Shown here: positions 626-13,304 of the stretch, in pieces | How positions within the stretch are numbered: the stretch's first letter is position 1 | Layout of the letters: the number at the start of each line of letters is the position of its first letter | DNA from: an uncultured Thermotogae bacterium | GTDB lineage: Bacteria > Bipolaricaulota > Bipolaricaulia > UBA7950 > UBA9294 | Assembly: GCA_964558595.1 (NCBI GenBank) | Contig: CAZLER010000008.1 | Location: 830 to 64,829, forward strand | Direction: 5' to 3' | DNA: 64,000 nucleotides | Made by a program: the position numbers and the translations under genes | Notes under the pieces: model-generated | Told to the model about the DNA's origin: nothing | Databases searched by the model: none | The model's input: only the letters and a program-made list of their open reading frames with translations

Positions 626-1627
626 TCAAGCGGATGTTGAGCGCAGATCGAGGGTGCCGGTCTCGCCGGTGGTCCCGCGCAGGTAGTATCCACGGATTCC
701 ATCGATCCGCAGGAGCACGTAGTCGGGATCGGAGGGACCGTCCGGCCAGTCGTCCTTCCAATCGTCTTGCCATAGCTTCCGTTCGCGGTCGGCATCGACC
801 ACGACATGTGCCTCCCCGTGAATCGACGCGTAGTTGAACCGCGTCGAATCGACGAAGACGACGGTCACGTACGGGTTCGCCTCGATTTGAGCCACCTTCT
901 GCGATGCACGAGAGGTGGCGAACCACAGCGAGTTCCCTTCGCGTGCGGCGAGCAGCATCGGCCGCGACCAGGGGAAGCCGTCGTCGCCCAAGGTGATGAG
1001 CAACGGGTAGGGGAGCGCGTCGACGATCCGCCAGAACGTCTGTGCCCCGGCAGCGCCGGTGACGGTGGCGTCGAGCGCATCCTGCGTGGGAAACACGATC
1101 GGATCGTCGAGGGCGAACGTTCGCACCACGTCCTCGACAAGGGTGTCCCGGACCAGGAGGATGGGAACGACGTCGGCCGCCAGGAGGCGGCGGACGGCGG
1201 CTGCATGGCCCTCGCCGTCGAGCTCGAGGCGGCCGACCTCGTCGACGAACACGACGTCCGCCGAGTCGAGGGCCGACGTGACGGCCCGCTTGGCGACGGC
1301 CAGGCCGCGCTCGCTGACGAAGAACCGCCCCACGGCTACACTCCCGATTCCGGGATCGAGGCTGGCGAACGGGTGGGTCGTATTGGTGGCCAGATCGATG
1401 AGCGAATAGCCCACCGTCGCATCGCCGTCGAGCACGCGCGGCGCGAGGAACCCGCCGACACGAACACTGGATTGGCGGAGCAACGACAACAGACGCAGCC
1501 CGGTGGAGGTCTTCCCCGCCGCGATCCCTCCGGTGAGCAACACCGCTCGGAGGGGAGTCCGCCCCTGGACGACCGCGAGAACGCGATCGAGCAGTCCCTT
1601 CAACGGGGAGGTCCGTCGCGGCTCCAT
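626..1627 (-). CDS. Fusion protein: P-loop NTPase (THEP1/DUF2478-like, GIAAGKTS Walker A) N-terminal domain plus pyridoxamine-5'-phosphate-oxidase-like FMN-binding split-barrel C-terminal domain
   Basis: ORF 626..1798 minus. Start placed at internal Met (MEPRRTSPLKGLLDRVLAVV...) at 1627 so the gene does not overlap the upstream PLP gene; stop TAG of the upstream gene is 5 nt before this ATG. Walker A LLTGGIAAGKTS and Walker B-like VVFVDEVG; C-terminal half ...LWFATSRASQKVAQIEANPYVTVVFVD...HGEAHVVVDADRERKLW matches the PNPOx/general-stress-protein-26 fold. Confidence 0.6.
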   Translation of the reverse strand: MEPRRTSPLKGLLDRVLAVVQGRTPLRAVLLTGGIAAGKTSTGLRLLSLLRQSSVRVGGFLAPRVLDGDATVGYSLIDLATNTTHPFASLDPGIGSVAVGRFFVSERGLAVAKRAVTSALDSADVVFVDEVGRLELDGEGHAAAVRRLLAADVVPILLVRDTLVEDVVRTFALDDPIVFPTQDALDATVTGAAGAQTFWRIVDALPYPLLITLGDDGFPWSRPMLLAAREGNSLWFATSRASQKVAQIEANPYVTVVFVDSTRFNYASIHGEAHVVVDADRERKLWQDDWKDDWPDGPSDPDYVLLRIDGIRGYYLRGTTGETGTLDLRSTSA

Positions 1628-1632
1628 GCAGG

Positions 1633-3114
<1,482 letters not shown>

Positions 3115-3213
3115 CGTGCCTCCTGCATGCAGTGGATTGTCTGGCGGCTCCGGCAATGCTATCATGCTGCTTGGCCGGATTCCAGCAACGCCGTTAGGAA
3201 GGGGGATCCATCG

Positions 3214-4614
3214 ATTCGGGCGCATGAACTCGTGGTTCGCGGGGGGACGATCGTCACGCCATGGTCGGTGATCTCGGCCGATGTCGGGATCGACGGGGGG
3301 ACGATCCGGGAAATCGCTCCGGACCTGACCGGCGAGCGGTCGGTGGAGGCAGACGGCAAGATCGTCCTTCCCGGTGTCATCGACGCGCACACCCACATGG
3401 CGTTGCCGGTCGGCGGCACCCGCTCCAGTGACGATTTTGCCTCCGGCACCATGGCGGCTGCCTCCGGAGGTGTCACGACGATCATCGACTTCACCGTCGG
3501 CTCGTCCGACAAGTCGATCCCTGAGGGGATCGAGCGCCGGCTCCAGGAGGTTGATGACGCGATCGTCGACGTCGCGCTGCATGCGGAGGTCATCGGTTGG
3601 CAACCCGGTGCAGAGGAGGAGTTCGAGGAGGCGATCCGGCGGGGGGTCACCAGCTTCAAGTTCTACACGGCGTACGAGGCGTCCGGACGTCGGACGCCGC
3701 CAGCGGTCATGAAGCGGGCATTCGAAGCGCTGGCCGAGCTCGGTGGCACCGCTCTCGTTCACTGCGAGGACGAGGGGCTGATCCGATCGATCACCGAGGG
3801 CTTGACGGCCGATGAGATGGCGGAGATGGCGACGCTGGCAACCGCCCGGCCCGATCTCTGCGAGGGGTCAGCGGTATCGCAGGTCGGGCGACTGGCGGAG
3901 GTTACGGGATGCCCTGTCCACATCGTGCATGTCAGTTCGGCATTGGGCTTGGCAGCGGTCCGGGAGGCCAGAGGACGCGGGGCGCGGCTGACCGGGGAAA
4001 CCTGCCCACAGTATCTGGTGCTGTCCGCGGGCTGCTACGATCGGATGGACGGCCACCTGTTTGCTGCGGCACCGCCGTTGCGCACCGATGCCGACCAGCG
4101 CGCCTTGTGGAAGGGTCTGCGACGGGCGGAGTTGGACATGATCGCCACCGACCATTGTCCGTTCACCCGCGAGCAGAAGCGGTGGCGGGGCTCGTTCGCC
4201 GATCTTCCGTATGGGTTGCCCGGCGTGGAGACCCTCCTTCCGCTGGTGTATTCGGAAGGGGTGGGCCACGGGCGGCTGCATCTTCCCGACCTCGCGAGGC
4301 TCCTCTCCGAGGGGCCTGCCCGGGTTCACGGCCTGTATCCACGCAAGGGTACGGTGGAGGTCGGATCCGATGCCGATCTCGTGGTCTTCGATCCCGACGC
4401 GACGTGGGAGGTGCGCGCCGCGGGCCTGCACATGAATACCGACTTCTCTCCCTACGAGGGGTGGTCGGTCACCGGGCGCGTCGTCGCCACCATCGCCCGC
4501 GGGGAGGTCGTCTACCGTGACGATGACGTTGTGGCGTCGCGCGGACGGGGGCGGTTTCTGTTCCGGGAGCCACGCGCGCCGGGAAGAGGGCATGATGGGT
4601 CTCCAGGCGCCTAG
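3214..4614 (+). CDS. Cyclic amidohydrolase of the dihydropyrimidinase/hydantoinase family
   Basis: ORF 2953..4614. Conserved N-terminus begins at ...IRAHELVVRGGTIVTPW. Metal-binding DAHTHM motif, carboxylated-lysine region SFKFYTAYEA, later HCEDE and ATDHCPF motifs typical of hydantoinase/DHPase. No ATG/GTG/TTG at the expected position: candidate ATT at 3214 (SD GGAAGGGGG ends 8 nt upstream), or GTG 3232, or ATG 3127 (which would leave only 12 bp to the divergent gene). Start uncertain. Confidence 0.75.
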   Translation: MRAHELVVRGGTIVTPWSVISADVGIDGGTIREIAPDLTGERSVEADGKIVLPGVIDAHTHMALPVGGTRSSDDFASGTMAAASGGVTTIIDFTVGSSDKSIPEGIERRLQEVDDAIVDVALHAEVIGWQPGAEEEFEEAIRRGVTSFKFYTAYEASGRRTPPAVMKRAFEALAELGGTALVHCEDEGLIRSITEGLTADEMAEMATLATARPDLCEGSAVSQVGRLAEVTGCPVHIVHVSSALGLAAVREARGRGARLTGETCPQYLVLSAGCYDRMDGHLFAAAPPLRTDADQRALWKGLRRAELDMIATDHCPFTREQKRWRGSFADLPYGLPGVETLLPLVYSEGVGHGRLHLPDLARLLSEGPARVHGLYPRKGTVEVGSDADLVVFDPDATWEVRAAGLHMNTDFSPYEGWSVTGRVVATIARGEVVYRDDDVVASRGRGRFLFREPRAPGRGHDGSPGA

Positions 4615-4665: not shown

Positions 4666-5373
4666 ATGCCGTTCGAGAAGGTACGACCTCGCAAGGTGAC
4701 GGCGATCGCTGCCGAGCAGATCCTCGAGGCGATCCAGCGCGGCGATTACCCGTTGGGCGGCAAGCTTCCGTCCGAATTCGAGCTGGCCGAGCAGATGGGC
4801 GTGAGCCGGCCGTCGATTCGCGAGGCGCTCAGCGCGCTGCAAGCGATGGCCGTCATTGAGTCCCGCCCGGGCAGCGGCAACTATGTCATCCACATCCCAT
4901 CGACCTCCGAGGAGGACGACGCCGTCCACTTGATCGAGAGCGAAGCCGGATGCCGCGAGGTGATGGAAGCGCGGGAGGCACTTGAGCCTCCGGTCGCGGC
5001 GTTGGTGGCCCGCAAGCGGTCCTCCGCCGAGTTGTCCGAGCTCCAGGAGATCCTGAGGACGATGCACGCCTACGCGGCCGCGGATGAGTTCGAGGCGTAC
5101 CTCGACGCCGACAAGTCCTTTCACTCCGCACTGGCGGAGGCCGCGGGCAACACCTTGGTGGCGGCGGCGCTTTCCCCACTGCTCCACTCGATGGATCAGC
5201 GGGTGTATCGGGAGTTCACGCGACAGTACTACCTCAAGAACGTCGACGACCTGCAGACGGTCGCCGACCTTCATCGCGATGTGCTCGCTGCGATCGAGCG
5301 CGGCGACGAGGGCACCGCCTTCTCCAAGATGGTCGAGCACTGGACGCGGATGCGGGAGATCTGGGAAGCGTAG
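4666..5373 (+). CDS. GntR family transcriptional regulator, FadR/FCD subfamily
   Basis: N-terminal wHTH (ILEAIQRGDYPLGGKLPSEFELAEQMGVSRPSIREAL) plus C-terminal FCD-type helical domain. SD GGAGGCAGGAGAG upstream of ATG 4666. Confidence 0.85.
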   Translation: MPFEKVRPRKVTAIAAEQILEAIQRGDYPLGGKLPSEFELAEQMGVSRPSIREALSALQAMAVIESRPGSGNYVIHIPSTSEEDDAVHLIESEAGCREVMEAREALEPPVAALVARKRSSAELSELQEILRTMHAYAAADEFEAYLDADKSFHSALAEAAGNTLVAAALSPLLHSMDQRVYREFTRQYYLKNVDDLQTVADLHRDVLAAIERGDEGTAFSKMVEHWTRMREIWEA

Positions 5374-5697: not shown

Positions 5698-6846
5698 ATG
5701 ACGACGTGGGAGCGCGTGTGTGCCGATGCGCGCGAGTTGGTCGAGCGTCTGATCGCCGTGCGGAGTGCCAATCCCCCCGGAAACGAGGATCGGATGGTGG
5801 AGGTGTTGTTGCCGGCGCTCGGTGACGCCGGGCTGGAGCCGATGCCGCTCCGACTGGAAGACGATCGCAGCTCGATCGTGGTCAGGATCGCGGGCGAGAC
5901 GCCGGGATCGCTGGTGCTCTGCGGCCACCTCGACACAGTGAACGCAGAACCGGAGCAGTGGACCTCCGATCCGTGGACGCCCCGACGCGACGGCGATCGG
6001 CTGTTCGGGTTGGGGGCGGCGGACATGAAGGGTGGGGTCGCCGTTCTGGTGGCGGTCATGCGAGAGCTGGGGCGCCGGGCGATCCGACCGGGTCAGGACG
6101 TGGTGCTCGTGCTGACGGCCGACGAGGAGCGGGGATATCGCGGTGCGGCCGACATCGTAGAGCGTGGGTTGCTCGACGATGCCAGGATGCTGTTGATCGC
6201 GGAGCCGACCGGCGGCCAGCCGTACATCGGGCAAAAGGGCGAGCTGTGGGTGGAATGCCGGTTTCTCGGTTGCGCGGGGCATGGTTCGATTCCGGAGTCC
6301 GGCGTGAACGCGGTCGTTCCCGCAGCGGCGTTTTGCCTTCGGCTGATCGAGGAAGCACGCAGCTTTGGAGAGGTCGAGGGACGAGGTCGGACATCGCTCA
6401 ACATCGGGAGGATTGAGGGAGGCACGCAGGTTAACATCGTCCCCGACCGGGCTCGGGTCGAGTTGGACCTCCGCGTAGGGAATGAGGAGGAGCGGAACCG
6501 CGTTCTCGGGTTGATCGAGCACGTGGGTCGCACCATGGCGTCCTCGTGGGGGGCTCGATTCGAGCACGACGTGTTCAACGATCGTGCTCCGATCTGCGAT
6601 GTGGTCGAGGATCCGGCGGTCGCGCGGTTCCTCGCACTCCACGCGCAGGTCACCGGACGATCGCAGACGCGTCGGATTGCGCCGTACTCGACGGATGCCG
6701 TGGCGATCGTCTCGCGGCTTCATGTTCCGGTAGTCATCTACGGACCCGGACGGATCGAGGATGCGCATCGTCCGGACGAGGTACTCGATCTGACCTCGTT
6801 GGACGAAGCCGTGAAGGTCATCGGGCGGTACGCCGGTCTGTCGTGA
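5698..6846 (+). CDS. M20 family metallo-amidohydrolase (ArgE/DapE/YgeY-like peptidase or deacylase)
   Basis: Motifs LCGHLDTV, GLGAADMKGG, LTADEERG and IAEPTG match the M20 metal-binding and catalytic residues; 382 aa. SD AGGGAG 5 nt upstream. Confidence 0.85.
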   Translation: MTTWERVCADARELVERLIAVRSANPPGNEDRMVEVLLPALGDAGLEPMPLRLEDDRSSIVVRIAGETPGSLVLCGHLDTVNAEPEQWTSDPWTPRRDGDRLFGLGAADMKGGVAVLVAVMRELGRRAIRPGQDVVLVLTADEERGYRGAADIVERGLLDDARMLLIAEPTGGQPYIGQKGELWVECRFLGCAGHGSIPESGVNAVVPAAAFCLRLIEEARSFGEVEGRGRTSLNIGRIEGGTQVNIVPDRARVELDLRVGNEEERNRVLGLIEHVGRTMASSWGARFEHDVFNDRAPICDVVEDPAVARFLALHAQVTGRSQTRRIAPYSTDAVAIVSRLHVPVVIYGPGRIEDAHRPDEVLDLTSLDEAVKVIGRYAGLS

Positions 6847-6909: not shown

Positions 6910-7863
6910 ATGAGCGAACAGAAGAAGACGGTCGTCGTCGCCCTGGGTGGGAATGCCATTCTGCAGCCGGGCCAGCGCGGGACATTCGAGGAGCAGATGC
7001 ACAACGTCTGGATGACCTGCGAGCAGCTGGTGCGGATGGTCCAATCGGGTCAATACAAGATCGTGGTCACGCACGGCAACGGACCCCAGGTGGGCAACAT
7101 CCTGCTACAAAACGAAGCCTCTCGGGATGTCGCCGAGCCGATGCCTCTGTTCATCTGCGGAGCGGAGAGCCAAGGGTTGATCGGGTTCATGATCCAGCAG
7201 AACCTGGGCAATCTGCTTGCCGCGCATGGCAAGGGCGACGTGCCGATTGCCACGGTGGTCACGCAGGTGGTGGTCGGCAAGGACGATCCGGCGTTCACCA
7301 ATCCGTCGAAACCGGTCGGGCCGTTCTACGGCGAGGAAGAAGCCCGTGGGCTCGAGACCGAAAAGGGGTACGACGTGCGGGAAGACGCCGGACGGGGATG
7401 GCGGCGCGTCGTGCCGTCGCCCGATCCGATCGAGATTGCCGAGAAGGCATCGATCCGTCAGCTCGTCGAGGGCCGGGTCATCGTGATCGCCTCGGGCGGA
7501 GGGGGGATCCCGGTCGTCCGTGAGGACGGAGGGCTCAAGGGGGTCGATGCGGTGATCGACAAGGATCTTGCCGGTGAACGGCTGGCGGTTGACGTGAACG
7601 CCTCGATCTTCATGGTCCTCACCGATGTGGACAGCGTGTGCCTCCACTACAAGACCCCCGACGAGCAGGCGATTCCGCGCATGACCGTGGACGAAGCGAA
7701 GCGATACCAGGCCGAGGGACAGTTCGCCAAAGGCTCGATGGAGCCCAAGGTGCGCGCCGCGATCCGGTTCATCGAAGGCGGCGGCGAGCGTGCGATCATC
7801 ACCTCGCTGGGCAAGGCGTACGACGCGCTGGAAGGAAACGCCGGAACGACGATTACCGCATAG
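6910..7863 (+). CDS. arcC: Carbamate kinase (amino-acid kinase family, ArcC/YqeA-like)
   Basis: ORF 6862..7863 trimmed to ATG 6910 (SD GGAGG 4 nt upstream). MSEQKKTVVVALGGNAIL N-terminus, THGNGPQVG, and C-terminal ...IITSLGKAYDALEGNAGTTI are typical of carbamate kinases. Confidence 0.85.
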   Translation: MSEQKKTVVVALGGNAILQPGQRGTFEEQMHNVWMTCEQLVRMVQSGQYKIVVTHGNGPQVGNILLQNEASRDVAEPMPLFICGAESQGLIGFMIQQNLGNLLAAHGKGDVPIATVVTQVVVGKDDPAFTNPSKPVGPFYGEEEARGLETEKGYDVREDAGRGWRRVVPSPDPIEIAEKASIRQLVEGRVIVIASGGGGIPVVREDGGLKGVDAVIDKDLAGERLAVDVNASIFMVLTDVDSVCLHYKTPDEQAIPRMTVDEAKRYQAEGQFAKGSMEPKVRAAIRFIEGGGERAIITSLGKAYDALEGNAGTTITA

Positions 7864-7937: not shown

Positions 7938-8975
7938 ATGTCGAATACGACCCTGAGAGGGCGAGACTTCATCACGTGGCTCGACTTCTCGCGCGACGAG
8001 ATCGACGCCATGCTGGACGTGGCGCATGACTTGAAGCGGCGGTTCATCCGTCGCGAACCGCACAAGCTGCTCGAGGGACAGACGCTCCACATGCTGTTCT
8101 ACAATACCTCACTGCGGACCCGCAATTCGTTCGAAGCGGGAATGACGCACCTGGGCGGCCACGCGCACTTCCTCCAGCCGGGGGCCGTGTACACGCCGGC
8201 GCTCAAGGGCGAGGAGGTCGCATATTCCACCGAGCGGATCAGCGACGTTGCTCGCGTGCTGGCGGAGATGGGCGACGCGATCGCGATCCGTATCTACGGG
8301 AAGCCGACCGGCTGGGAATACGGCAAGGGGGATCGGATCGTGCGCGAGTTCGCCGAATGGTCGAAGGTCCCGGTGATCAATATGGAAGACGACATGTATC
8401 ATCCGTGCCAAGCGCTCGCCGATGTGATGACGATGCAGGAGAAGCTAGGGCACGACCTGCAGGGCAAGAAGTTCGTCATGAGCTGGGCGTACTCGGGGTC
8501 GGTGGCGAAGCCGCTGGCGGTGCCACAGTCGGCGATTGTGTCGGCGGCGATGATGGGGATGGACGTGACGCTGGCGCATCCGGAGGGGTTGGATCTCGAT
8601 CCGAAGATCCTCGACGCGACGGGCAAACTCGCCGCGAAGCACGGCGGCGCGTTCAAGATCTCGCACGACATGGATGCCTCGTTCGAGGGTGCCGACGTGG
8701 TCTACCCCAAGGCGTGGACCGTGCAGCCGACCGACGGATCGGGTGTGCTCGACGAGGAGAAGGCCAAGCAGGTGTTCGAGGCGAACAAGCATTGGATCTG
8801 CACGCCGGAGAAGATGGCCCGGACTCGCGATGCCATCTATATGCACTGTCTTCCGGCCGACCGGGACATGGAGGTGACCGACGACGTCATCGATGGCCCG
8901 AACTCGGTGATCATCGAAGAAGCCGCCAATCGGCTCCATGCGCAGAAGGGCATGATGGCGCTGATCATGGCATAG
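7938..8975 (+). CDS. Carbamoyltransferase, YgeW-like (Asp/Orn transcarbamylase fold; substrate unknown), paralog 1
   Basis: ORF 7638..8975 trimmed to ATG 7938 (SD GGAAGGAG 7 nt upstream). CP-binding SLRTR (STRTR variant), HPCQ and HCLP motifs present, but the ornithine-binding DxxxSMG motif is replaced (FVMSWAYSGS). Confidence 0.8.
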   Translation: MSNTTLRGRDFITWLDFSRDEIDAMLDVAHDLKRRFIRREPHKLLEGQTLHMLFYNTSLRTRNSFEAGMTHLGGHAHFLQPGAVYTPALKGEEVAYSTERISDVARVLAEMGDAIAIRIYGKPTGWEYGKGDRIVREFAEWSKVPVINMEDDMYHPCQALADVMTMQEKLGHDLQGKKFVMSWAYSGSVAKPLAVPQSAIVSAAMMGMDVTLAHPEGLDLDPKILDATGKLAAKHGGAFKISHDMDASFEGADVVYPKAWTVQPTDGSGVLDEEKAKQVFEANKHWICTPEKMARTRDAIYMHCLPADRDMEVTDDVIDGPNSVIIEEAANRLHAQKGMMALIMA

Positions 8976-9233
8976 GACGAGCTGCCGAGGAGATCACTGC
9001 GGAGGACGCAGCGGGCGCCGAGGAAGGTCGGGAGGAAACGGAGAGCTAGCCGATGACGTCACAAGAGGGTGATGAACATGTGTTGCACTCCGCGCTCTGC
9101 GGTGGAGGCTGATACGGGGAACCGGAGGAGCCGACGCACCGAGTTCATGAGCGGCATCTTGTCCGTACCGTTGCCAACGGCTCCCCGAAGCCCGGTCTAC
9201 GCTCTGTAGTAGGGTAGCGGAAAAGGAGGTCAG

Positions 9234-10259
9234 ATGAGTTGGTACGACCTGACGGGAAAGGATCTGATCAGCGAGGTCGACTGGACACGTGAGGAGTACG
9301 ACATCGCGATGAAGGTCACCGATCAACTGAAAGGGTCCTACTACAGTCGGAAGCCGCACCGGACGCTGGAGGACAAGACGTTCGCCATGCTGTTCTTCGC
9401 CGGGTCGACGCGGACGCGGATGTCGTTCGAGACCGGGATGACGCAGCTCGGGGGGCACGCCCACTTCCTCAATCCCTCGACCATGCGCCTGTCGCTTGAG
9501 GACAAACCCGGAGCGGGAGAAACGGTCAAGGACACCGCCAAAGCGATGGAGCGGTTCTGCGATGGGATCGGAATCCGTCTGCTCGACGACAGCATCGACT
9601 ACTACGGGCACGGTGACGAAGTGATGCGCAAGTTCGCCGAGCACGCGGAGGTCCCGGTGATCAACATGGCCTCGGACATCAACCATCCGTGTCAGTCGCT
9701 TACCGACATCTACACGATGCACGAGAAGCTCGCGGGCGACGTCCGCGGGAGGAAGATCGTCATCATGTGGGCGTACACCCCGTGGATTCGCGGGTTGTGC
9801 TCGGTGCAGGGGACGGCATTGATCTCCGCGATGTACGGGATGGACGTGGTGGTTGCCAATCCTCCGGAGCACGATCTGGATCCCAACGTGATGCGACAGT
9901 GCCGTGACCTGGCTTCCGCTTCCGGCGGATCGTTCGAGATCTCCCACGATCTCGATCAGGCGCTCGACGGGGCGACGGTGGTGTTCCCGCGGAACTGGTT
10001 CACCCAGGATCGGTACGAAATCGGCAAGGAGAAGGAGCATGAGATCGCGCTGCAGTACAAGGATTGGTGCTACACCGCGGAGCGGCAACGCAGGCTTTGC
10101 GATCCCGGGTACCTGCTCCAGTGCATGCCGGTGGATCGGGGGCACGAAGCCGAACCGGCAGTGTGCGACAATGCGCTCTCCTGGATGTACGATCAGGCGG
10201 AGAACCGACTGCACACGCAGAAAGCGATCATGACGCTGACGATGGGAGGACGGCTGTAA
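9234..10259 (+). CDS. Carbamoyltransferase, YgeW-like, paralog 2
   Basis: STRTR and HPCQ conserved; SMG motif replaced (IVIMWAYTPW); HCLP replaced by QCMP. SD AAAGGAGG upstream; 258 bp leader region. Confidence 0.8.
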   Translation: MSWYDLTGKDLISEVDWTREEYDIAMKVTDQLKGSYYSRKPHRTLEDKTFAMLFFAGSTRTRMSFETGMTQLGGHAHFLNPSTMRLSLEDKPGAGETVKDTAKAMERFCDGIGIRLLDDSIDYYGHGDEVMRKFAEHAEVPVINMASDINHPCQSLTDIYTMHEKLAGDVRGRKIVIMWAYTPWIRGLCSVQGTALISAMYGMDVVVANPPEHDLDPNVMRQCRDLASASGGSFEISHDLDQALDGATVVFPRNWFTQDRYEIGKEKEHEIALQYKDWCYTAERQRRLCDPGYLLQCMPVDRGHEAEPAVCDNALSWMYDQAENRLHTQKAIMTLTMGGRL

Positions 10260-10260
10260 C

Positions 10261-12552
10261 ATGGGCGATCGGCGGACGACCGTGATTGGCGGGAGCACAC
10301 CCCGGCCGGATGCCGTGGACAAGGTGCGAGGCGTAGCGCGGTTCGCTGACGATCTTGCCTTCCCCGGTATGCTCCACGGCGCGGTCGTCCGTAGCACGTA
10401 CCCACACGCACGGCTGGTCCGCGTCGACACGAAAGACGCGGTGGGCGACCCAGAGGTCGTCTGCGTCGTGTCGCACGAGGATGTGCCCGGGGACAACCTC
10501 GTTCATGTCATCTACGACGACCAGCCGGCCCTGGCGGCGGATGTCGTTCGCTACGTTGGCGAACCGATCGCGTTGGTGGCGGCAACGTCGCGGCGGGCGG
10601 CGAAGCGTGCCGCCGCCTCCATCCGTGTCTCCTACGAGGAGCTGACGGCGGTCACCGATCCGATGGCGGCGTTGGCTCCCGATGCCCCGGCGGTTGTCGC
10701 CGATCCGCTGGCTGCCGAGGGCGGCGGCAACCTGTTCAACGCGATGGTGCTCCGCAAAGGCGATGTCGAACGGGGCTTCGCTGAGGCGGACGTCATCGTC
10801 GAGCAACGGTACGAGACCGGCTACCAGGAGCATGCCTACATCGAGCCGCAGGGCGCGATCGCGGTCCCCGAGGAGCTCGGGTCGGTGGCGGTCTACGCGT
10901 CGATGCAGTGCCCGTTCTATGTGCAGGGAGCGGTGGCCAAGGCGCTCGGCCTCCCCCTGTCCAAGGTGCGCGCGGTGCAGACGGCGACCGGCGGAGCGTT
11001 CGGTGGCAAGGAAGACGTCCCCTCGCAGATCGGGACGCTGGCCGCGCTGATGGCCGTCAAGGCACAGCGGCCGGTGAAGCTGGTGCTCGATCGAGCGGAA
11101 GACGTCTTGACCACGAGCAAGCGCCATCCGTCGCGAGTTCGCTATCGCAGCGGTGCCAAGGCCGATGGCACGCTGACGGCGATCGAGGTCGAGGTGGTCC
11201 TCGACGCCGGCGCGTACCAGACCCTCTCGTCGGCCGTGCTATGGAGGAGCCTGTGCACGGCGGCGGGCCCGTACCGGATTCCCCATGTCAAGGTCGACGC
11301 GAAATCGGTCGCCACCCACACCGTGCCCAACGGTGCGTTCCGGGGGTTCGGTAGCCCGCAGGTCATCTTCCCACACGAATCGCAGATGGACCTGCTCGCC
11401 GAACGTCTGGGGATCGATCGGGCAGCCATCCGCCGGGTGAATCTATTGCGGCCGGGTGACCGCACGTCCACCAACCAGCGGGTGCGCGACAGCGTCGGGG
11501 TCGGAGAGACCCTCGAGCGGGCGGTCGAGCTCGCCGATTGGGACGAGCGACGGCGTCGGATCGAGCGCGACAACGCCCAGGCCACCGAGCATCGGCGGGG
11601 CGTGGGCCTGGCGTGCGTGCTGTACGGGGTGGGGCTGGGAGGCAAGGCGCCGTTCCTCGACAAGGCCGGAGCCACGATCAAGATCGAAGCCGACGGGTCG
11701 ATCGCCGTCGCGGTGGGCACGGTCGAGATGGGCCAGGGACTGACGACGGTCCTCCTGCAGGTCGCTGCGGAGGCACTGGAGGTGCCCATCGAACGGATCC
11801 ATCTTGCTCCGGTGGACACCAGTCGCGTCCCCGACAGCGGGCCAACGGTGGCATCGCGGGGAACGATGATGAGCGGTCTCGCGGTGCTCGACGCGGCGCG
11901 GAAGCTTCGCGAACGGATCGACGCCGTGGCGACGGAGCTGGGGATTCCGGTCGACGATGTCCCGGCACGGTGGGACGAGATCGCCCACACGTTCTGGATG
12001 CGCAACCTGGATCCCGCGGTCGAGGGGTGGGCGCGGACCGAACCGGTTGGTTGGGACCCGGAGACCGGGCTGGGCGATGCCTATCCGGTGTACGCGTACG
12101 CAACCCACATCGCGGAGGTCGAGGTCGACACCGTGACCGGGGAGACGGAGATCGTCGACTACCTTGCTGTTCACGACTCGGGGCGGATCCTCAACCGATC
12201 GCTGGCGATCGGGCAGGTGGAGGGCGGAACGGCGCAGGGGATCGGTTTTGCGCTGATGGAAGAAATCCCGCGGCGGGACGGCCGACTGATCGTGAATGGG
12301 CTCACCACCTACCGGCTCCCGACGATCCGTGACGTCGCCCCGGCCCCGACGACGGACTTCGTGGAGGCGTGCTTCCCGGCGGGACCGTATGGGGCAAAGG
12401 GGATTGGGGAAGTGCCGCTCATGGCAGCGCATGCAGCGGTGGCCCGGGCTGTCGCCGATGCCGTGGGCACCCCCGTCTTCCGGTATCCGCTCGATCCTCC
12501 GCGGGTGCGCCGGCTGCTCGATCAGGCAACGCCATCGCCGAGCGCCGCGTGA
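10261..12552 (+). CDS. Xanthine dehydrogenase/aldehyde oxidase family molybdopterin-binding subunit
   Basis: 763 aa; a/b-hammerhead plus MoCo-binding domains (…GGAFGGKE…, …RGFG.PQ…, …GQG…TV…). ATG starts 1 nt after the preceding stop. No FAD or 2Fe-2S subunit genes in the window. Confidence 0.85.
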   Translation: MGDRRTTVIGGSTPRPDAVDKVRGVARFADDLAFPGMLHGAVVRSTYPHARLVRVDTKDAVGDPEVVCVVSHEDVPGDNLVHVIYDDQPALAADVVRYVGEPIALVAATSRRAAKRAAASIRVSYEELTAVTDPMAALAPDAPAVVADPLAAEGGGNLFNAMVLRKGDVERGFAEADVIVEQRYETGYQEHAYIEPQGAIAVPEELGSVAVYASMQCPFYVQGAVAKALGLPLSKVRAVQTATGGAFGGKEDVPSQIGTLAALMAVKAQRPVKLVLDRAEDVLTTSKRHPSRVRYRSGAKADGTLTAIEVEVVLDAGAYQTLSSAVLWRSLCTAAGPYRIPHVKVDAKSVATHTVPNGAFRGFGSPQVIFPHESQMDLLAERLGIDRAAIRRVNLLRPGDRTSTNQRVRDSVGVGETLERAVELADWDERRRRIERDNAQATEHRRGVGLACVLYGVGLGGKAPFLDKAGATIKIEADGSIAVAVGTVEMGQGLTTVLLQVAAEALEVPIERIHLAPVDTSRVPDSGPTVASRGTMMSGLAVLDAARKLRERIDAVATELGIPVDDVPARWDEIAHTFWMRNLDPAVEGWARTEPVGWDPETGLGDAYPVYAYATHIAEVEVDTVTGETEIVDYLAVHDSGRILNRSLAIGQVEGGTAQGIGFALMEEIPRRDGRLIVNGLTTYRLPTIRDVAPAPTTDFVEACFPAGPYGAKGIGEVPLMAAHAAVARAVADAVGTPVFRYPLDPPRVRRLLDQATPSPSAA

Positions 12553-12626: not shown

Positions 12627-13304
12627 TTATAGGCCGAGAATATCGAACAGAGCGGAGAAATCGATTCCGCCCTCGAGGACGCCCTCGAGCGTGGTCACAC
12701 CGAGCATGCCGACGATGGTGTTGAAGAAGTTCTCGATCCCCTCGGCGGGGGAGGTCATGATGATCGGCATCAGCGATTCCTGAAGCGACATCCCCAACGA
12801 TTCGGACAAGCCGGCGAGGTAGTCCTCGTTGTCCTGGAAGAACTGCTCGAAGGCAGCCGCCAGCCCTTCCGGATCCGACTCCCGCAGGTGAACGATCCCT
12901 TGGCCGAACAAAAACCCCAGCTTCTCAACCGTGGTGAAGTACGGGGTGCCCACCGCGCGCTCGCCCGATAGCCAGACCGCGTAGGCGGGAACGGCGTCCG
13001 CAGGCTCCCAATAGAGCTGGACCGTTCCGCTCTTGACGAGGTCGCCGATCATGGTGAACGTGCTGCCGGTCATCTCGGTGGCGAGCCTCATGGCTCCACC
13101 GAACGTCACCTTGCTAGAAATCGTTACCTGTTGGTCGAACTCCACCTGGAGACCGGTGACCTGCATGCCGGTGGTGTTGTTGAACAACCCCACCGCCTCA
13201 TCGCCCGCGACATAGCTCTCGATCCATACCTCTTGAGCCATCGTCGCCAACGACAGCACCGCCACCAGCCCCACCATCAGCACTAAGGACCTACCTTGCA
13301 TCAT
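12627..13304 (-). CDS. Hypothetical secreted protein (signal peptide, no recognisable domain)
   Basis: N-terminus MMQGRSLVLMVGLVAVLSLATMAQE is signal-peptide-like; somewhat lower GC than its neighbours; terminator hairpin immediately downstream. Confidence 0.5.
   Translation of the reverse strand: MMQGRSLVLMVGLVAVLSLATMAQEVWIESYVAGDEAVGLFNNTTGMQVTGLQVEFDQQVTISSKVTFGGAMRLATEMTGSTFTMIGDLVKSGTVQLYWEPADAVPAYAVWLSGERAVGTPYFTTVEKLGFLFGQGIVHLRESDPEGLAAAFEQFFQDNEDYLAGLSESLGMSLQESLMPIIMTSPAEGIENFFNTIVGMLGVTTLEGVLEGGIDFSALFDILGL

Follow-up and report, generated by a model that had tools for sequence, protein, structure and literature searches.

A conserved, mis-annotated pair of knotted-type transcarbamylases in Bipolaricaulota associated with genes for reductive urate degradation

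Two adjacent transcarbamylase (carbamoyltransferase) genes, here called TC1 (the first) and TC2 (the second), are carried by a 64,000-nucleotide stretch of contig CAZLER010000008.1 (GenBank assembly GCA_964558595.1, positions 830 to 64,829) from an uncultured bacterium of the Bipolaricaulota. This whole 64-kb stretch (G+C content, 66%) is referred to below as the window, and all coordinates follow its numbering. Together they form a two-transcarbamylase module that is conserved, mis-annotated, and, judging from its gene neighborhoods, part of a new variant of the recently discovered reductive uric acid (2,8-dioxopurine) pathway. It occurs where the YgeW-type transcarbamylase and the hydrolase YgeY of that pathway are both absent.

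The first description of the reductive uric acid pathway dates from 2025 and has a single transcarbamylase, YgeW, and a single hydrolase, YgeY. In the reference scheme, XdhD reduces urate, the ring is dearomatized by YgfK, UacX, or an F420-type enzyme, and SsnA and HyuA open the two rings to give 2,3-diureidopropionate. YgeW, the 2,3-diureidopropionate carbamoyltransferase of the pathway in E. coli and C. sporogenes, then phosphorolyzes one ureido group, and YqeA uses the carbamoyl phosphate to form ATP; YgeY hydrolyzes the other ureido group, and YgeX converts 2,3-diaminopropionate to pyruvate (10.1101/2025.04.24.650524, PMC12507026, PMC12990295).

TC1 and TC2 differ in their second-substrate residues

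TC1 (7938..8975, + strand; 345 amino acids [aa]) and TC2 (9234..10259, + strand; 341 aa) are real, complete genes. Each starts with an ATG preceded by a good ribosome-binding site (GGAAGGAG for TC1 and AAGGAGG for TC2), and each encodes the Pfam domains OTCace_N and OTCace (E-values, 1e-25 to 1e-41). Pfam, NCBIfam, and residue typing (the latter over 58 orthologues for TC1) identify TC1 as a knotted-type and TC2 as a divergent knotted-type transcarbamylase. Residues were read from an alignment of the N-acetylornithine transcarbamylase (AOTCase) of Xanthomonas campestris, Escherichia coli YgeW, the ornithine transcarbamylase (OTCase) of Pyrococcus furiosus, 58 TC1, 66 TC2, 6 TC1b (a third type, see below), and 10 archaeal TC2-like sequences. 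The AOTCase sequence was rebuilt from PDB alignments, and its numbering, used throughout, reproduces the published active-site residues.

Both proteins keep the carbamoyl phosphate motifs exactly as stated in the original prediction: SLRTR (8109-8123) and HPCQ (8400-8411) in TC1, STRTR (9405-9419) and HPCQ (9684-9695) in TC2. The corresponding residues (S-x-R-T-R, R112, HPCQ, and R322) are retained in all 58 TC1 and all 66 TC2 sequences, and with STRTR, R112, HPCQ, and R322 intact the carbamoyl phosphate site of TC2 is complete. At the second-substrate positions, TC1 has E144 (in NME-D, 8379-8390) and K252 (in YPKAW, 8703-8717) versus A144 (in NMAS, 9663-9674) and R252 (in FPRNW, 9984-9998) in TC2, each pair being invariant across about 60 orthologues. 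SLRTR, R112, E144, HPCQ, K252, and HCLP (8844-8855) are kept in 58/58 TC1 orthologues; the changes E144 to A, K252 to R, and L295 to M are each found in 66/66 TC2 orthologues.

The ornithine motif DxxxSMG, said to be lacking from both proteins, is indeed absent, which is the norm for knotted transcarbamylases (PMC4581275). The tetrapeptides put forward as its substitutes, SWAY in TC1 (8481-8492) and MWAY in TC2 (9765-9776), lie elsewhere: they occupy AOTCase positions 176-179, at the start of the knot-forming loop, where AOTCase reads TWTY and YgeW reads TWAY. In the alignment, the DxxxSMG Asp falls at position 252, i.e., the Lys of YPKAW in TC1 and the Arg of FPRNW in TC2. The replacement of HCLP by QCMP in the second paralog is present in the window TC2 (10119-10130) but does not extend to the family as a whole, position 293 being Q in half of the 66 TC2 orthologues (33) and H in the remaining 33, with HCMP or HVMP as the alternatives to QCMP. 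All superfamily motifs (SxRT, HPxQ, HxLP, the beta4 Arg, and the C-terminal Arg/Lys) are found in TC1, and all except HxLP, which reads [QH][CV]MP, in TC2.

Residues diagnostic of the ornithine and acetylornithine enzymes are changed in both proteins. The Lys slot of the OTCase motif FxKxSxRT holds N in TC1 and A in TC2. The AOTCase specificity residues E92, N185, and K302 are replaced by T or a gap, K, and E, respectively, in TC1 and by G, G or S, and E in TC2, these replacements being invariant within each family; W77 of AOTCase is also replaced in TC1 (YTP). The loops have the proportions of the knotted group: the 120s segment comprises 29 to 30 residues in TC1 and TC2 versus 20 in OTCases, an extension that is a signature of that group, and the loop after W177 comprises 15 to 16 residues versus 9 in OTCases. 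A knot loop rich in proline is the other signature of the group, and the TC2 loop has only one Pro. The 80s loop of TC2, EDKPGAGE (9498-9521), is invariant in a sample of ten TC2 sequences.

The paralogs form two deep subfamilies

By sequence, TC1 and TC2 represent two deep, separate subfamilies of knotted-type transcarbamylases. They are 42% identical to each other (264 bits), which bears out the earlier remark that the paralogs are as distant from one another as from canonical OTCases, identity to the P. furiosus OTCase being 40% for TC1 and 38% for TC2. Identity to the X. campestris AOTCase is 41% and 35%, respectively, and YgeW is the most distant of these comparators (33% and 29%). In a crude neighbor-joining tree without support values, TC1, TC2 with its archaeal relatives, TC1b, AOTCase, and YgeW formed separate clades. 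These separate clades, together with archaeal counterparts of both genes (63% identity for TC1 and 55% for TC2), rule out a recent tandem duplication as the origin of the pair.

The designation "YgeW-type" given to the paralogs in the original prediction is apt as regards function and setting (a catabolic role, a neighboring carbamate kinase gene, loops of the knotted type) but not as regards family. On the YgeW hidden Markov models (HMMs) TIGR03316 and NF005538 (cut-offs, 500 and 453 bits), TC1 scored 165 and 173 bits and TC2 scored 110 and 113 bits, all below cut-off. The proteins are 341 to 345 aa long versus 396 aa in YgeW, and their alignments to the structure 3Q98 run to about residue 309 without spanning an extra loop. 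The YgeW set of Q160, K270, and HPTQ corresponds to E, K, and HPCQ in TC1 and to A, R, and HPCQ in TC2. With these HMM scores, this length, and Q160 and HPTQ missing, orthology to YgeW was rejected; an identity with the Rubrobacter type of ureidoglycine transcarbamylase was rejected on motifs.

On the AOTCase HMM NF003384 (cut-off, 288 bits), TC1 scored 327 and TC2 scored 235 bits. The model evidently also captures knotted enzymes other than AOTCases. All OTCase HMM scores were below cut-off for both proteins, and TC2 lies below every curated cut-off. When 1.84 billion representative proteins were searched exhaustively, 7,351 transcarbamylases were recovered, only 188 of which matched TC2 at an E-value of ≤1e-30, so the TC2 family is narrow; its closest representative was 55% identical and the next ones were 44 to 45% identical. 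The search also returned many uncharacterized knotted-type enzymes in which positions 144 and 252 carry other pairs of residues. In the NCBI and JGI databases, TC1 orthologues are named N-acetylornithine carbamoyltransferase and TC2 orthologues are named ornithine carbamoyltransferase.

Conservation of the transcarbamylase pair across Bipolaricaulota and archaea

A scan with one genome per species yielded about 70 nonredundant loci of the Bipolaricaulota type (TC2 identity, 59 to 89%), in which genes were counted by tblastn mapping, the denominators varying with the feature. A gene in the TC1 position directly precedes TC2 in 61/62 loci, and a carbamate kinase (CK) gene lies upstream of the TC1-position gene in 54/55. 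The molybdopterin (Mo) subunit of a xanthine dehydrogenase (XDH) family enzyme is encoded immediately downstream of TC2 in 32/56 loci. Further neighbors are a GntR regulator (36/43), a CysK-like pyridoxal phosphate (PLP) enzyme (31/43), a hydantoinase (10/43), and an M20 amidohydrolase (10/43).

The sole exception to TC1-TC2 adjacency is the metagenome-assembled genome (MAG) chromosome CP070725, where TC1 is split between two distant sites. In this closed MAG (CP070725.1; loci L001/L010 and L087, ~1.6 Mb and ~0.81 Mb), one site carries GntR, CK, and a 274-aa TC1, and the second, ~0.8 Mb away, carries an 88-aa C-terminal fragment of TC1 followed by TC2 and XDH. Either the gene was broken by a rearrangement or the assembly is in error.

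The TC1 position is occupied by TC1b in six loci (L017, L023, L025, L029, L040, and L070) while TC2 stays in place. TC1b is a knotted-type protein of 331 aa, 43% identical to TC1, with STRTR, L144, HPFQ, KSWG, and HCLP. It exceeds the OTCase cut-off of TIGR00658 (299.6 versus 280.85) without having DxxxSMG and thus constitutes an annotation trap.

TC2-like genes with 45 to 55% identity are also found in archaea (Thermoplasmata, Thermococci, Baldrarchaeota, Asgard lineages, Hadesarchaea, and Bathyarchaeia), and in eight archaeal loci (L075-L080, L082, and L083) they stand alone, without a TC1-like gene. In a Thermoplasmata (L073) and a Thermococci (L075) locus, the TC2-like gene (50 to 55% identity) is part of a string comprising a PreA/dihydropyrimidine dehydrogenase (DPD)-like dehydrogenase with 2x[4Fe-4S], a DadD-like amidohydrolase, the TC2-like gene, and an adenine deaminase, which hints at an archaeal purine degradation cluster. 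The neighbors of the Asgard and Hadesarchaea TC2-like genes (TPR, VWA, radical SAM, and AOR) gave no functional clue.

Physical links to urate degradation genes

In the window, TC1 and TC2 belong to a one-directional string on the + strand consisting of a hydantoinase, a GntR/FCD regulator, an M20 amidohydrolase, CK, TC1, TC2, and an XDH Mo subunit. The window proteins resemble part of the urate pathway set: there are HyuA-like, XdhD-like, and YqeA-like (CK) genes plus the two transcarbamylases. CK (6910..7863, +) scored 430 bits on the arcC model TIGR00746 (cut-off, 358) and is 45% identical to E. coli YqeA; its open reading frame (ORF) is open from 6862, but translation probably begins with the ATG at 6910, preceded by GGAGG. 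The D-hydantoinase/dihydropyrimidinase gene (3232..4614, +; alternative start, ATG at 3127) scored 410 bits on TIGR02033 (cut-off, 393), is 37% identical to E. coli HyuA, and also matched dihydropyrimidinase and allantoinase models. The XDH Mo subunit gene (10261..12552, +; Pfam Ald_Xan_dh_C, MoCoBD_1, and MoCoBD_2) has its start codon 1 nucleotide past the TC2 stop. It aligns, with 28% identity, only to residues 171-955 of E. coli XdhD and hence lacks the [2Fe-2S] domain, having neither an Fe-S nor a flavin adenine dinucleotide (FAD) domain.

Related loci carry further steps next to the pair. In L048, the gene order is YgfK, SsnA, a ThrC-like PLP enzyme, M20, PALP, CK, TC1, and TC2; its YgfK is 40% identical to that of E. 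coli over 766 aa (470 bits), and its SsnA scored 528 bits on NF005540 (cut-off, 444). L047 has a luciferase-like (F420-type) enzyme followed by SsnA, a ThrC-like enzyme, PALP, CK, TC1, and TC2, a substitution by an F420-type reductase as described for Chloroflexota (PMC12507026). In L017, TC1b, TC2, and XDH are directly followed by a diaminopropionate ammonia-lyase gene (NF006058, 452 bits versus a cut-off of 276). L121 presents TC1, TC2, CK, YgfK-like, and SsnA in this order, and L134 presents PALP, TC1, TC2, CK, and a ThrC-like gene, divergent from a YgfK-like, SsnA, and hydantoinase string. These arrangements place the TC1-TC2-CK module, by gene content, in reductive urate/purine degradation. 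No literature was found on a Bipolaricaulota carbamate kinase or on a two-transcarbamylase uricolytic variant.

The pair and YgeY have complementary distributions

The association was tested independently by a metagenome scan anchored on the SsnA of L047, in which every transcarbamylase of the 80 loci obtained (L088-L167) was typed. Three kinds were found: true YgeW (Q144, HPTQ, ~380 aa), a short Q144 type, and TC1-proper (SLRTR, E144, YPKAW, and HCLP; 56 to 61% identical to the window TC1). A true YgeY (50 to 69% identity to the E. coli protein) is encoded in 13 of the loci, and in 11 of these it adjoins a Q144-type enzyme, whether YgeW or the short type; all five TC1-proper loci lack YgeY. 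Both TC1-proper loci that extend far enough (L121 and L134) have a TC2-type gene (A144, YSR[HN]W, and HPMP) and CK after TC1.

The short Q144 type (L093, L101, L110, L113, L123, and L163) comprises proteins of 322 to 325 aa with STRTR and [YI]PK[SN]WG, 43 to 47% identical to TC1 and encoded beside YgeY; it is probably another uncharacterized YgeW equivalent.

Proposed roles of the two transcarbamylases

In the pathway variant that we propose, TC1 plus TC2 would replace YgeW plus YgeY, both ureido groups of 2,3-diureidopropionate being phosphorolyzed in turn and leaving as carbamoyl phosphate for the adjacent CK. Because both groups would be released in this form, the yield could reach two ATP per urate. 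The takeover of both deureidation steps is suggested by the module context, the complete carbamoyl phosphate sites, the distinct second-substrate residues, and the absence of YgeW and YgeY, and we consider the case for it evenly balanced. From the E144/K252 pair, which holds an N-alpha-acyl amino acid in AOTCase and N-succinylornithine transcarbamylase (SOTCase), TC1 would act first, cleaving the distal 3-ureido group from an N-alpha-carbamoylated substrate. TC2 has lost E144 and has an Arg at position 252, which we take to be the slot of Arg229 in aspartate transcarbamylase (ATCase); it would next remove the ureido group at the alpha (2-) position, in a reversal of carbamoyl-aspartate chemistry, to leave 2,3-diaminopropionate, which a PLP enzyme would convert to pyruvate and ammonia. 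That TC2 is a new specificity, i.e., an alpha-ureido phosphorolase of a urate-derived N-carbamoyl-alpha-amino acid that replaces YgeY and raises the yield from one to two ATP, is a tentative assignment to which we give slightly less than an even chance. Gene identities, residue patterns, synteny, and the complementarity with YgeY are observations; the substrates, the step order, and the ATP yield are inferred.

Several observations weigh against this proposal. The step order and regiochemistry are deduced by analogy with AOTCase and ATCase residues and can be put forward with low confidence, and which ureido group YgeW itself attacks is disputed (PMC12990295). Homologues of SsnA, YgfK/UacX, YgeX, and YgfM were not detected in the 64-kb window, and only a few contigs have SsnA beside the module (L047, L048, L121, and L134, plus L142 with TC1 only). 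Neither the window nor the related loci have an Fe-S or FAD subunit gene near XDH. The M20 hydrolase of the window operon could itself carry out the second step. Finally, the AlphaFold2 model of TC2 is poor (predicted local distance difference test score [pLDDT], 67; below 50 in loop 183-188), and the Foldseek template modeling (TM) scores obtained with it, 0.60 to 0.64 for AOTCase and 0.61 to 0.65 for the P. furiosus OTCase, overlap and so do not separate knotted from unknotted templates.

The original prediction had left the choice between two acceptor substrates and a heteromeric enzyme. The former is favored here by the placement of the proteins in different deep subfamilies and by the invariant E144/K252 versus A144/R252 pairs. 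A single heteromeric transcarbamylase, with mixed trimers or one noncatalytic chain and only one ureido group removed, would fit the strict adjacency of the genes in a fixed order with short gaps (median, 28 bp), the 80s loops that are invariant within each family, the departure of TC2 from HxLP (QCMP, HCMP, or HVMP), and the fact that transcarbamylase active sites are shared between neighboring subunits via the 80s loop (PMC4581275). TC2 nevertheless keeps every carbamoyl phosphate-binding residue; TC2-like genes stand alone in the archaeal loci listed above, which makes a heteromer less likely; TC1 can be exchanged for the 43%-identical TC1b while TC2 stays; and the complementarity with YgeY points to a catalytic replacement. 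We know of no heteromeric catalytic transcarbamylase, and with all this we judge the heteromer quite improbable. It is also unlikely that TC1 and TC2 serve different carbamoyl compounds from different routes instead of consecutive steps on one molecule, e.g., TC1 acting on 2,3-diureidopropionate and TC2 on N-carbamoyl-beta-alanine or beta-ureidoisobutyrate (from pyrimidines), an allantoin-derived ureide, or citrulline. The matches of the hydantoinase to dihydropyrimidinase and allantoinase models would accord with such a split, as would the PreA/DPD-like, DadD-like, and adenine deaminase neighbors of archaeal TC2-like genes and the varying accessory genes (hydantoinase in some loci, M20 with a peptide-type ATP-binding cassette transporter in others). 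Against it, no dihydropyrimidine dehydrogenase or allantoin pathway gene was seen in any Bipolaricaulota locus, and the pair acts as a unit, YgeY being missing exactly where TC2 is present.

The names in the databases, if taken at face value, would make TC1 an AOTCase and TC2 an OTCase of arginine synthesis, with the M20 protein as the acetylcitrulline/acetylornithine deacetylase and CK supplying carbamoyl phosphate. Besides the NCBI and JGI orthologue names, the NF003384 score of TC1 (327 versus 288 bits) and the adjacent M20 gene of the ArgE/DapE family speak for this. Yet E92, N185, and K302, the residues on which the AOTCase rule is based (PMC4581275), are all changed in TC1, and TC2 falls below every cut-off and has neither DxxxSMG nor the FxK Lys. 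Arginine biosynthesis genes were found neither in the 64-kb window nor in the related loci, where the context is one of GntR, XDH, hydantoinase, SsnA, and YgfK. An arginine-biosynthetic function is, in our judgment, extremely improbable.

The TC1-TC2 spacer and other features of the locus

TC1 and TC2 are separated by a spacer of 258 bp (8976..9233, +). The original prediction gave this length correctly and regarded the segment as a leader, a function for which Rfam, pattern, fold, and conservation checks revealed no recognizable element: an Rfam search returned 0 matches, promoter-like or terminator-like patterns were not found in the 258 bp, the sequence folded no better than shuffled versions (z-score, -0.72), and it showed no similarity to any of 80 related loci. 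On these grounds, a riboswitch or leader was ruled out. Across 64 loci, leaving aside an M20-inserted locus, the TC1-TC2 gap has a median of 28 bp and ranges from 8 to 542 bp, the spacer in the window being a lineage-specific insertion and not a regulatory feature of the system. Two close relatives (L071 and L072) have spacers longer than that of the window (501 and 542 bp), and L039 and L041 have an M20 gene inserted between the two transcarbamylase genes; this junction seems to be an insertion hotspot.

The M20 (ArgE/DapE-like) amidohydrolase of the window (5698..6846, +; TIGR01910, 213 bits) scored 114 bits on the YgeY model (cut-off, 321) and is 24% identical to YgeY, in line with the M20 genes of Bipolaricaulota loci in general (24 to 29%). 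By these comparisons it is an accessory gene and not a YgeY orthologue. In L084, the M20 gene is accompanied by a family-5 solute-binding protein and two permeases. The GntR/FCD-family transcriptional regulator (Pfam GntR and FCD) is encoded at 4666..5373 (+).

The CysK/CBS-like PLP enzyme (1633..3114, -; Pfam PALP; best PDB matches, CysK/CBS) is a divergently transcribed protein of 493 aa with a C-terminal extension, 75 to 86% conserved in Bipolaricaulota. An AlphaFold model (pLDDT, 67) and a fold search likewise described it only as CysK/CBS-like. Homologues recur in SsnA-anchored loci (L110, L134, L142, L149, L150, and L163). An alanine racemase or a class-IV (D-amino-acid-type) aminotransferase gene adjoins the CysK-like gene in several loci (L028, 3971-5110, - strand; L059, 4806-5735; L084, 872-1792), a possible link to the R (D) configuration proposed for pathway intermediates. 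Another PLP enzyme, which is ThrC-like (331 bits on NF006050, "threonine synthase") and has a zinc ribbon at its N terminus, is among the commonest neighbors of SsnA, being present in 17 of 50 SsnA loci of at least 6 kb (e.g., L093, L107, L110, L134, and L163) as well as in L047, L048, L073, and L076. The pathway as published for E. coli or Clostridioides difficile does not include this enzyme.

Upstream, an ORF at 626..1798 (-; Pfam and NCBIfam) fuses an NTPase_1/DUF2478 domain to a PNPOx-like (flavin/F420-type) domain, the latter a weak F420-PPOX match. In a clade with 62% identity (L002), the two are separate genes beside XdhC, and they could be a molybdenum cofactor maturation or reductase accessory pair. 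Downstream of XDH and on the opposite strand (12627-13304, -) is a gene for a 225-aa signal peptide protein, kept in 19 related loci and without a Pfam or NCBIfam match, that is probably unrelated to the pathway. The remaining genes of the window are housekeeping genes.

Significance and comparison with known systems

If the proposal is true, both carbamoyl groups of urate would provide two ATP by substrate-level phosphorylation instead of one in anaerobes such as Bipolaricaulota, and the pathway variant with two transcarbamylases and no YgeY would be energetically superior. TC1 and TC2 would then be natural position-specific enzymes that could settle the disputed order of ureido cleavage, and the known range of the pathway would widen to include related archaeal genes and a subsurface phylum that is uncultured and energy limited. 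The systematic mis-annotation of TC1, TC2, and TC1b would corrupt reconstructions of arginine synthesis in these genomes, and the clusters would escape published surveys in which 63% identity to YgeW was the minimum required.

The overall scheme resembles that of catabolic OTCase or putrescine transcarbamylase (PTCase) coupled to CK, as in the arginine and agmatine deiminase pathways, where phosphorolysis of a ureido group gives carbamoyl phosphate and then ATP. Those enzymes are unknotted, have DxxxSMG or the PTCase 230s-loop motif, and act singly in each pathway, whereas here two knotted-type enzymes are encoded in tandem and the acceptor is predicted to be purine derived. The ureidoglycine carbamoyltransferase Rxyl_2847 of Rubrobacter xylanophilus is closer in function, being purine catabolic, adjoining a carbamate kinase gene, and dealing with a di-ureido acid (allantoate). 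It belongs to the ATCase branch, has the motifs STRT, HPTQ, and HPLA, and is unknotted (PMC4016543), i.e., its sequence class is unrelated to TC1 and TC2.

Among solved structures, the X. campestris AOTCase is the best match for TC1 (41% identity in a gap-poor alignment), with equal lengths of the 120s and knot loops and with E144, K252, HPCQ, and HCLP kept. The two differ in E92, N185, K302, and W77 (YTP in TC1) and in the catabolic context without an arg operon; TC2 has, in addition, the changes E144 to A, K252 to R, and L295 to M. With YgeW, the pair shares the catabolic role, the carbamate kinase neighbor, the association with SsnA-, YgfK-, HyuA-, and XdhD-type genes, the extended 120s loop, the W-x-Y loop insertion, and, in TC1, the K at the 252 slot. 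TC1 and TC2, in contrast, fall short of YgeW by about 50 residues, lack both the extended 240s loop and the additional terminal helices, and have E (TC1) or A (TC2) in place of Q at position 144 and HPCQ in place of HPTQ. Where YgeW is a single transcarbamylase, there are two enzymes here, with no YgeY orthologue alongside.

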